The notes beneath the pieces are model-generated. The model saw nothing but the letters and a program-made list of their open reading frames with translations, made no database searches and was not told the origin of the DNA. Both the position numbers and the translations under genes were made by a program. Shown piece after piece: positions 48,101 to 48,179 of a stretch of 64,000 nucleotides of DNA. The DNA comes from a virus (Duplodnaviria; Heunggongvirae; Uroviricota; Caudoviricetes): the IMG/VR virus record IMGVR_UViG_2721755711_000002; one strand, 5' to 3'. Numbering within the stretch: the stretch's first letter is position 1; the number at the start of each line of letters is the position of its first letter.

Positions 48101-48179
48101 TATCAGAATGAGTCGTCAACCTGCAACCGCAATTCTGGCGAATCGTAGGCCCCGGCACAGGCGACGACTCATTCTGATA
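48101..48179. repeat. 17-bp perfect inverted repeat pair separated by 45 bp
   Basis: TATCAGAATGAGTCGTC at 48101-48117 and GACGACTCATTCTGATA at 48163-48179. Confidence 0.9.

Follow-up and report, generated by a model that had tools for sequence, protein, structure and literature searches.

In lambdoid prophages of pathogenic E. coli, regulatory sRNAs in the cargo slot between Q and the lysis genes link the state of the phage with host physiology and virulence. Tree et al. (2014, PMC4104026) located sRNA genes of lambdoid prophages downstream of pR′. In the case of AgvB and AsxR (PMC4104026; RF02702, RF02703), moron cargo is found on one side and conserved late genes on the other, with the Q-antiterminated pR′ upstream, and the hairpin RNA unit that we describe here shares this setting. 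AgvB and AsxR are, however, 51-60 nt long, often convergent with the late operon and represented by Rfam models, whereas our unit is about 160 nt long, co-directional with the late operon and without a match in Rfam. PasA and PasC of EPEC and EHEC resemble it in occupying a lambdoid late niche by the holin-lysozyme operon, near RusA, TerB and tRNA genes, and in ending with an intrinsic terminator and U-tail. Cleavage of a longer transcript is reported to give mature PasA (Pearl Mizrahi et al. 2021, PMC8550237; bioRxiv 10.64898/2026.05.13.724894). In contrast to our unit, no 25-bp 5′ hairpin has been described for the Pas sRNAs, and the carrier strains differ. The 24B_1 RNA of Stx phage Phi24B is made as a long-hairpin precursor of about 80 nt that is bound by Hfq and cleaved to the active species; its mature product measures 20 nt, and it departs from our unit in being located in the lom-vb_24B_43 region (PMC4426718, PMC10732415). 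What the two have in common is that each is a lambdoid-phage RNA built on a long hairpin.

Helices of at least 20 bp inside polycistronic phage transcripts set RNA ends and stability at the lambda sib site and the T7 intergenic R sites, and DicF, an sRNA of the Qin prophage, is released by RNase III and RNase E from a longer transcript. At sib, the RNase III helix arises only when the terminator is read through. The helix of our unit, in contrast, lies wholly upstream of its terminator, so that terminated and read-through RNAs both carry it, and sib-like retroregulation was set aside for this reason. Small stable RNAs that are co-transcribed downstream of tRNA genes and end at the operon terminator are known as well, as in 3′ETS-leuZ and the T4 "species 1 and 2" RNAs. 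Unlike theirs, the tRNA linkage of our unit is not obligatory, as it is present in RM8082 and EC11 without an annotated tRNA upstream.

The inverted repeat and its surroundings

The window analysed here, the whole 64-kb stretch of viral DNA, was originally predicted to contain a pair of 17-bp perfect inverted repeats separated by 45 bp, between a tRNA-like gene and a 164-aa gene. Both the repeat and its placement are confirmed. The left arm, TATCAGAATGAGTCGTC, occupies positions 48101-48117 and its exact reverse complement positions 48163-48179, with 45 nt between them, and the repeat stretches to 20 nt at 95% complementarity (48098-48117/48163-48182). The tRNA-like gene is a tRNA-Gly(UCC), and on the other side lies an ORF of 163 codons. 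In 100 simulated windows (first-order Markov, whole window; perfect inverted repeats with a loop of up to 100 nt), the arms of the longest such repeat measured 10-13 nt, with a single case at 15 and none at 17. The exact arm sequence has no second copy elsewhere in the 64-kb window, and the only near-match, at 19855, differs by 3 mismatches, which is at chance level. GANTC sites occur within the arms, near the gene for an N6_N4 methylase, and were taken as coincidence.

All genes flanking the repeat are on the minus strand and correspond to the part of a lambdoid prophage that is devoted to late regulation and lysis. In the order of transcription they are DUF968/HNH, RusA, antiterminator Q (PF06323, minus strand), a terminator-like hairpin, a small TrmB-like ORF, the N6_N4 DNA methylase (49665-48619, minus), tRNA-Gly(UCC) (48328-48400, minus; ARAGORN; Rfam tRNA, 52.5 bits), a conserved element that we call unit A, the hairpin RNA unit, the 163-codon ORF (47924-47433, minus; without a Pfam family), a TerB-domain protein and two holins. 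The hairpin RNA unit thus occupies the moron slot of the late operon, before the lysis genes.

Several minor features accompany these genes. Directly downstream of Q, at about 50135-50220 on the minus strand, a terminator-like hairpin, AAAACCCGCCGCCAAGCGGGTTTTTTT (near 50140-50165), shows weak, sub-threshold similarity to IsrK/IsrJ and leader RNAs, and it is probably the tR′ terminator of a short pR′ transcript. Just upstream of tRNA-Gly, positions 48401-48480 (minus) hold a degenerate tRNA-Thr remnant for which ARAGORN makes no call; its T-arm and acceptor end, ...TTCGTGTGATTCCGGAGGCCAGCAC, aligns with the intact tRNA-Thr of F2_407_2_2 and JLK-2012. On the other side of the hairpin RNA unit, a weak AT-rich hairpin, AATGCC...GGCATTTTT, follows at 47990-48021, and a promoter-like TTTTCA-16-TATTAT (47989-47962, minus) precedes the 163-codon ORF, an arrangement typical of morons. 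In three relatives (L001, L007 and L009), three more hairpins resembling intrinsic terminators lie in series between the unit and the holin ribosome-binding site, and one of them is common to phage JLK-2012, which is without the unit.

Unit A (48200-48303, minus strand) is a second conserved element between tRNA-Gly and the hairpin RNA unit. It consists of an invariant 8-bp closing stem (CAGCACUG/CAGUGCUG) around two small hairpins, followed by a U-run that gives it a terminator-like end. It accompanies the hairpin RNA unit in most relatives, including a plasmid-borne copy, and displays little covariation; in RM8082 its place is taken by a different unit with a U-run end. The two units are probably carried on one transcript, and unit A may itself be a small RNA, or else the 3′ trailer of a tRNA together with its terminator.

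Architecture and conservation of the hairpin RNA unit

On the evidence of comparison among related sequences, the inverted repeat forms the central part of an RNA helix of 25 bp on the minus strand, which is the late-gene strand, rather than a stand-alone DNA site. The repeat of the original prediction is real and makes up no more than the opening portion of a larger conserved unit, which runs on the minus strand from 48182 to 48022 (about 160-165 nt) and comprises the hairpin, a linker of 50 nt, an intrinsic terminator and a U-tract. The 5′ arm of the hairpin, CGUUAUCAGAAUGAGUCGUC (48163-48182), corresponds to paired alignment columns 2-21, and the 3′ arm, GACGACUCAUUCUGAUACCG (48098-48117), is defined by the repeat and by covariation. 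Between the arms, the upper part of the hairpin (48118-48162), drawn from the RNAalifold consensus and the single-sequence fold, adds about 6 more bp past a 1-nt bulge (GCCUGU/GCAGG-U), then an internal loop and an apical 3-bp stem with a 7-nt loop; columns 22-27/65-70 and 49-51/59-62 of this region covary. In the RNAalifold consensus of 16 distinct sequences there are 35 pairs, made up of the 25-pair helix, the small apical stem and the terminator stem, and the helix itself has, counted from its base, 2 bp, then a 1x1 mismatch, a run of 17 bp, a bulge of 1 nt and finally 6 bp.

The linker (48048-48097, minus; alignment and folding) is A/U-rich and mostly unpaired. It holds a semi-conserved block, CUCUUGCAUGAUGAAUG, at 48053-48069, which is 6 nt shorter in the R1-type variant, the commonest one, and a U-rich stretch, AAUGUUUUA, which directly precedes the terminator and is left unpaired by the MFE, centroid and consensus folds. 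The terminator, found by a terminator scan, is the stem-loop GCCCGUC UCAU GACGGGC (48030-48047, minus), and the unit ends in the U-tract A UUUUUUU (48022-48029, minus), where homology with distant relatives stops. As RNA this segment reads GCCCGUCUCAUGACGGGC followed by A and 7 U, and as minus-strand DNA GCCCGTCTCATGACGGGC followed by A and T7 (48047-48022). It is kept in 20 of 20 distinct members with 100% of its cells paired, and its 7 stem pairs show G-C to G-U changes and one double change.

We found no conserved reading frame on either strand. Among relatives, the upper hairpin varies by indels of 1 nt and 5 nt and the linker by gaps of 1-7 nt, which exclude coding, and a small protein gene or type I toxin was ruled out on this basis. 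A search of the 160 nt upstream in 16 members revealed no conserved sigma-70 promoter; only weak, lineage-specific candidates were seen, such as CGGACA-17-TGTAAT inside unit A. The least conserved stretch is the 17-45 nt that separates the U-run of unit A from the hairpin.

Pairing is maintained as the sequence changes. In 16 distinct sequences 96.8% of the cells in the alignment are paired, and in 20 sequences 96.6%, compared with 30-47% in a control in which the 3′ partners were slid by 1-3 columns (16 and 20 sequences). Pairs with compensatory changes on both sides number 8 in the 16-sequence set and 8 in the 20-sequence set; a double change at the base of the helix, for example, exchanges U-A/A-U in the group of the window for G-C/C-G in the ETEC group. 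The covariation score was 0.220 in 16 sequences against 0.162 after shuffling and 0.242 in 20 sequences against 0.170, with 0 of 500 shuffles reaching the observed value in either case, the scores being drawn from about 20 related sequences of one species with few independent events. Pairwise identity among the 20 distinct sequences is highest in the arms (0.81-0.86) and the terminator (0.85), followed by the 3′ half of the linker (0.77), the upper hairpin (0.71) and the 5′ half of the linker (0.64).

Both strands of the repeat can be folded, with single-sequence z-scores of -6.6 on one and -7.2 on the other, and they are not separable by folding alone. A G·U pair on the minus strand is an A·C mismatch on the plus strand. 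Read on the late strand, the non-Watson-Crick cells of the 16-sequence set comprise 60 G·U and 5 A·C, and those of the 20-sequence set about 77 G·U and 8 A·C, counts in which cells are not independent, an inherited change being recounted in each sequence, and to which several different columns contribute. The roughly tenfold excess of G·U over A·C on the minus strand argues that pairing is selected on the late-gene strand, and this comparative asymmetry is the only basis on which the strand was called. The locus is very probably a conserved structured RNA on the late strand, and the pattern is the one expected of an RNA transcribed with the late genes.

Four readings of the repeat had been offered in the original prediction, and the long RNA stem is the one that is supported: 20 distinct relatives retain it, compensatory changes occur in it, and its mismatches are G·U on the late-gene strand. 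The other three, a recombination site, a miniature-element footprint and a binding site for a dimeric regulator, are not supported. For a dimeric regulator, the half-sites lie 45-50 bp apart and the substitutions are strand-asymmetric, unlike those expected of duplex DNA recognition. A palindromic operator for such a protein is unlikely, as we found neither strand symmetry (60 G·U against 5 A·C) nor closely spaced half-sites.

Relatives, distribution and known RNA families

Using a covariance model, R1, which we built from relatives in this analysis and used to collect instances, we recovered 42 instances of the unit, representing 20 distinct sequences, from E. coli lambdoid prophages and one plasmid-borne copy. 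The homologous region was detected by megablast and blastn in 24 of 5426 complete E. coli genomes, with a median of one place per genome carrying a match, and pattern scans added further copies in viral and metagenome contigs. A blastn search (word size 11) of the unit against 50,697 phage records gave no match, and a second scan of viral contigs for the linker-terminator motif produced no additional members. A pattern scan of genome contigs (18 specified bases, variable gap) returned at least 120 loci, and the matches listed, re-screened with blastn, nhmmer and the covariance model, all proved to be chance matches. The unit has so far been seen only in E. coli, genomes outside this species having been scanned with a pattern that is too loose. 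Carrier strains are mostly bovine and porcine isolates, which places the unit mainly in prophages outside model-strain studies, and model R1 can be used to annotate it in other genomes.

All chromosomal copies lie in the same slot of the late region and are co-directional with the late genes. They follow methylase and/or tRNA genes (Gly; Thr-Gly; Ile-Arg) and precede TerB/DUF3927 or, directly, a holin-holin-endolysin array. In relatives at 70-81% identity the segment that matches the window extends from the hairpin base through the U-tract (query 39-199/203 of 48220->48015). Since homology ends at these two points, the conserved entity is the hairpin together with the linker and the terminator, and not the repeat alone.

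The original prediction had proposed a search for other copies of the repeat and a comparison of related prophages for its presence or absence. No other copy exists in the window, and the repeat is found at a median of one place per genome. The polymorphism was seen in phage JLK-2012, in which tRNA-Gly joins the next terminator directly and about 330 bp, comprising unit A and the hairpin RNA unit, are jointly absent. The missing block begins after the 3′ end of the tRNA and stops at the next terminator; the repeat is internal to this block and not at its edges. JLK-2012 does without the block, from which it follows that the unit is accessory and moron-like, and not a core signal of the late operon. 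The unit also suggests that tRNA, unit A and hairpin RNA move together as a single accessory cassette.

Taken together, the internal position of the repeat and its single copy argue against the footprint of a mobile element. The rarity of the unit, in 24 of 5426 E. coli genomes, speaks for a miniature inverted-repeat footprint or a functionless, neutral relic. Compensatory changes nevertheless preserve the 25 pairs across lineages that differ by about 30% elsewhere, and there is no multi-copy spread, target-site duplication or element-like boundary, so that we regard either origin as highly improbable. MITEs, IS terminal inverted repeats and a recombination site are likewise not supported, as neither dispersed copies, nor target-site duplication, nor a polymorphism edged by the repeat was found.

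Four plasmid records matched, all with the same degenerate copy beside IS elements. In pPE041_2 (2336-3163), unit A and the hairpin RNA unit lie 160 bp downstream of an IS200-family tnpA, and the segment is shared by four PLSDB plasmids of pig E. coli. The 5′ UTR of this tnpA matches STnc490 (RF01405), and several other IS fragments lie around it. The plasmid copy has 5 broken hairpin pairs, the most of any, compared with 0-3 in prophage copies, and this pattern suggests decay after loss of the phage context.

The proximity of this copy to tnpA bears on the possibility that the repeat works as DNA, either as a single-stranded hairpin or as a site for recombination, transposition or protein binding. 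In the window the arms form a perfect palindrome, each strand folds equally well when taken singly, and single-stranded DNA hairpins also tolerate G·T pairs. A DNA-level site is nonetheless very unlikely in our estimation: the hairpin never changes its orientation with respect to the late genes and is invariably accompanied, on the same strand, by an intrinsic terminator and U-tract, each prophage has a single copy with no other in the window, and the repeat is away from the edges of the presence/absence block. The distance of 45-50 bp between half-sites and the strand-asymmetric substitutions likewise oppose recognition as duplex DNA.

Comparison with described RNAs yielded no family to which the unit can be assigned. 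A cmscan search of 46000-50500 against Rfam 15, with E-values up to 10, gave no match for the unit, and at the gathering threshold, in the window and 9 loci, only tRNA matches occurred near it. AgvB, AsxR, Esr41, STnc100, IsrK, DicF and other Rfam families were accordingly dismissed, none of their covariance models matching the unit. Phages YYZ-2008 and 2B8, identified as Pas carriers by Zhu, Shabalina and Storz (2026, bioRxiv 10.64898/2026.05.13.724894), were both among the phage records searched. Model R1 found no match in the PasA intergenic region of YYZ-2008 (L156 23473-23919) or in the PasC and PasD regions of 2B8 (L169 43795-44094 and 46071-46363). Membership in PasA/PasC was rejected because neither blastn nor model R1 detected homology, the comparison having been made with the loci of carrier phages. 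As far as Rfam 15, the Pas loci and the literature consulted show, the unit is a new family of a known kind, the small or structured RNAs in the moron slot of prophages.

Possible functions of the unit

With moderate confidence, we propose that the unit is an sRNA-type prophage gene in which the long hairpin acts as a processing or stability helix. Either the region would be co-transcribed in the lysogen with the upstream tRNA-Gly and unit A, or it would form part of the Q-antiterminated late transcript upon induction; that no conserved promoter was found and that the stretch upstream of the hairpin is poorly conserved make it more likely that the RNA is part of a longer transcript. Polymerase without Q modification would stop at the unit's own terminator and could thereby produce a small stable RNA. 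With 25 consensus pairs, 95% paired, the helix exceeds the length of about two turns (at least 20 bp) of RNase III substrates, and by general rules a helix of more than two turns is a candidate substrate of this double-strand-specific enzyme. Cleavage in the helix, or protection by a stable 5′ helix, may set a 3′ fragment of about 85-95 nt. Such a fragment would display Hfq-type features, namely a U-rich stretch and a GC-rich terminator hairpin with at least 7 U as its tail, and Hfq may be expected, again from general rules, to bind it. It is these features of an Hfq-type sRNA that make a prophage sRNA gene the most likely identity of the unit. Of 145 translation starts in the window that were examined as possible targets, none scored above shuffled seeds.

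The main alternative, which is less likely, is that the unit serves only as a cis-acting element of the late operon and yields no trans-acting RNA product. In that case the hairpin would be an RNase III site or exonuclease barrier that divides the methylase/tRNA part of the message from the lysis mRNA, and the terminator would be one of several insulators shielding the holin genes from transcription in the lysogenic state. This would account for the hairpin being the most constrained part, for a linker block that is variable and partly deleted in one variant, for the lack of an evident promoter of its own, for the stacking of at least three further terminators between the unit and the holin start in relatives, and for the decay of the plasmid copy outside a phage. 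Insulation, however, needs a terminator alone, and neither the conserved 3′ half of the linker (0.77 against 0.64 in the 5′ half) nor the U-rich stretch before the terminator is required for it. Moreover, JLK-2012 and like phages live without the whole block, as would be the case for an accessory, moron-like element.

If the sRNA reading is true, a previously undescribed family joins the set known from this slot, with a length of about 160 nt and an unusually long, strictly kept 5′ helix. The unit also offers a clean case for studying the processing of long helices in the late transcripts of phages. An elaboration of the sRNA reading, which we consider improbable, is that the RNA is caged and gives two outputs: RNase III would cut the 25-bp helix in the manner of a pre-miRNA, freeing a short duplex-derived RNA and unmasking the 3′-arm sequence GACGACUCAUUCUG, which is nearly invariant, as the 5′ seed of an Hfq-type sRNA. 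A regulator of this kind would be switched on by processing and not by transcription. Alternatively, because the unit travels with phage tRNA genes, it could be an RNA decoy that acts with the phage tRNAs against host defences that target RNA.

Elsewhere in the window, positions 16584-17863 form a near-palindrome of about 1.28 kb, an inverted repeat far larger than the arms of the hairpin. Two ORFs of the "prophage tail fibre N-terminal" type (PF08400; 16591-17226 plus and 17856-17191 minus), both truncated and convergent with each other, make it up. They are inverted copies with 92% complementarity over 425 nt, and a perfect repeat of 35 bp surrounds an 8-bp centre at 17220-17227. It looks like a tail-to-tail junction of opposed phage segments, left as a scar of recombination or inversion, or like an assembly fold-back. 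At 54159-54333 on the minus strand there is a strong match to the sok antitoxin RNA (RF01794, 113.5 bits), which points to a hok/sok-type type I toxin-antitoxin locus in the early region of the prophage, and 22759-22843 on the plus strand matches sRNA-Xcc1 (RF02221, 72.4 bits) above the gathering score.
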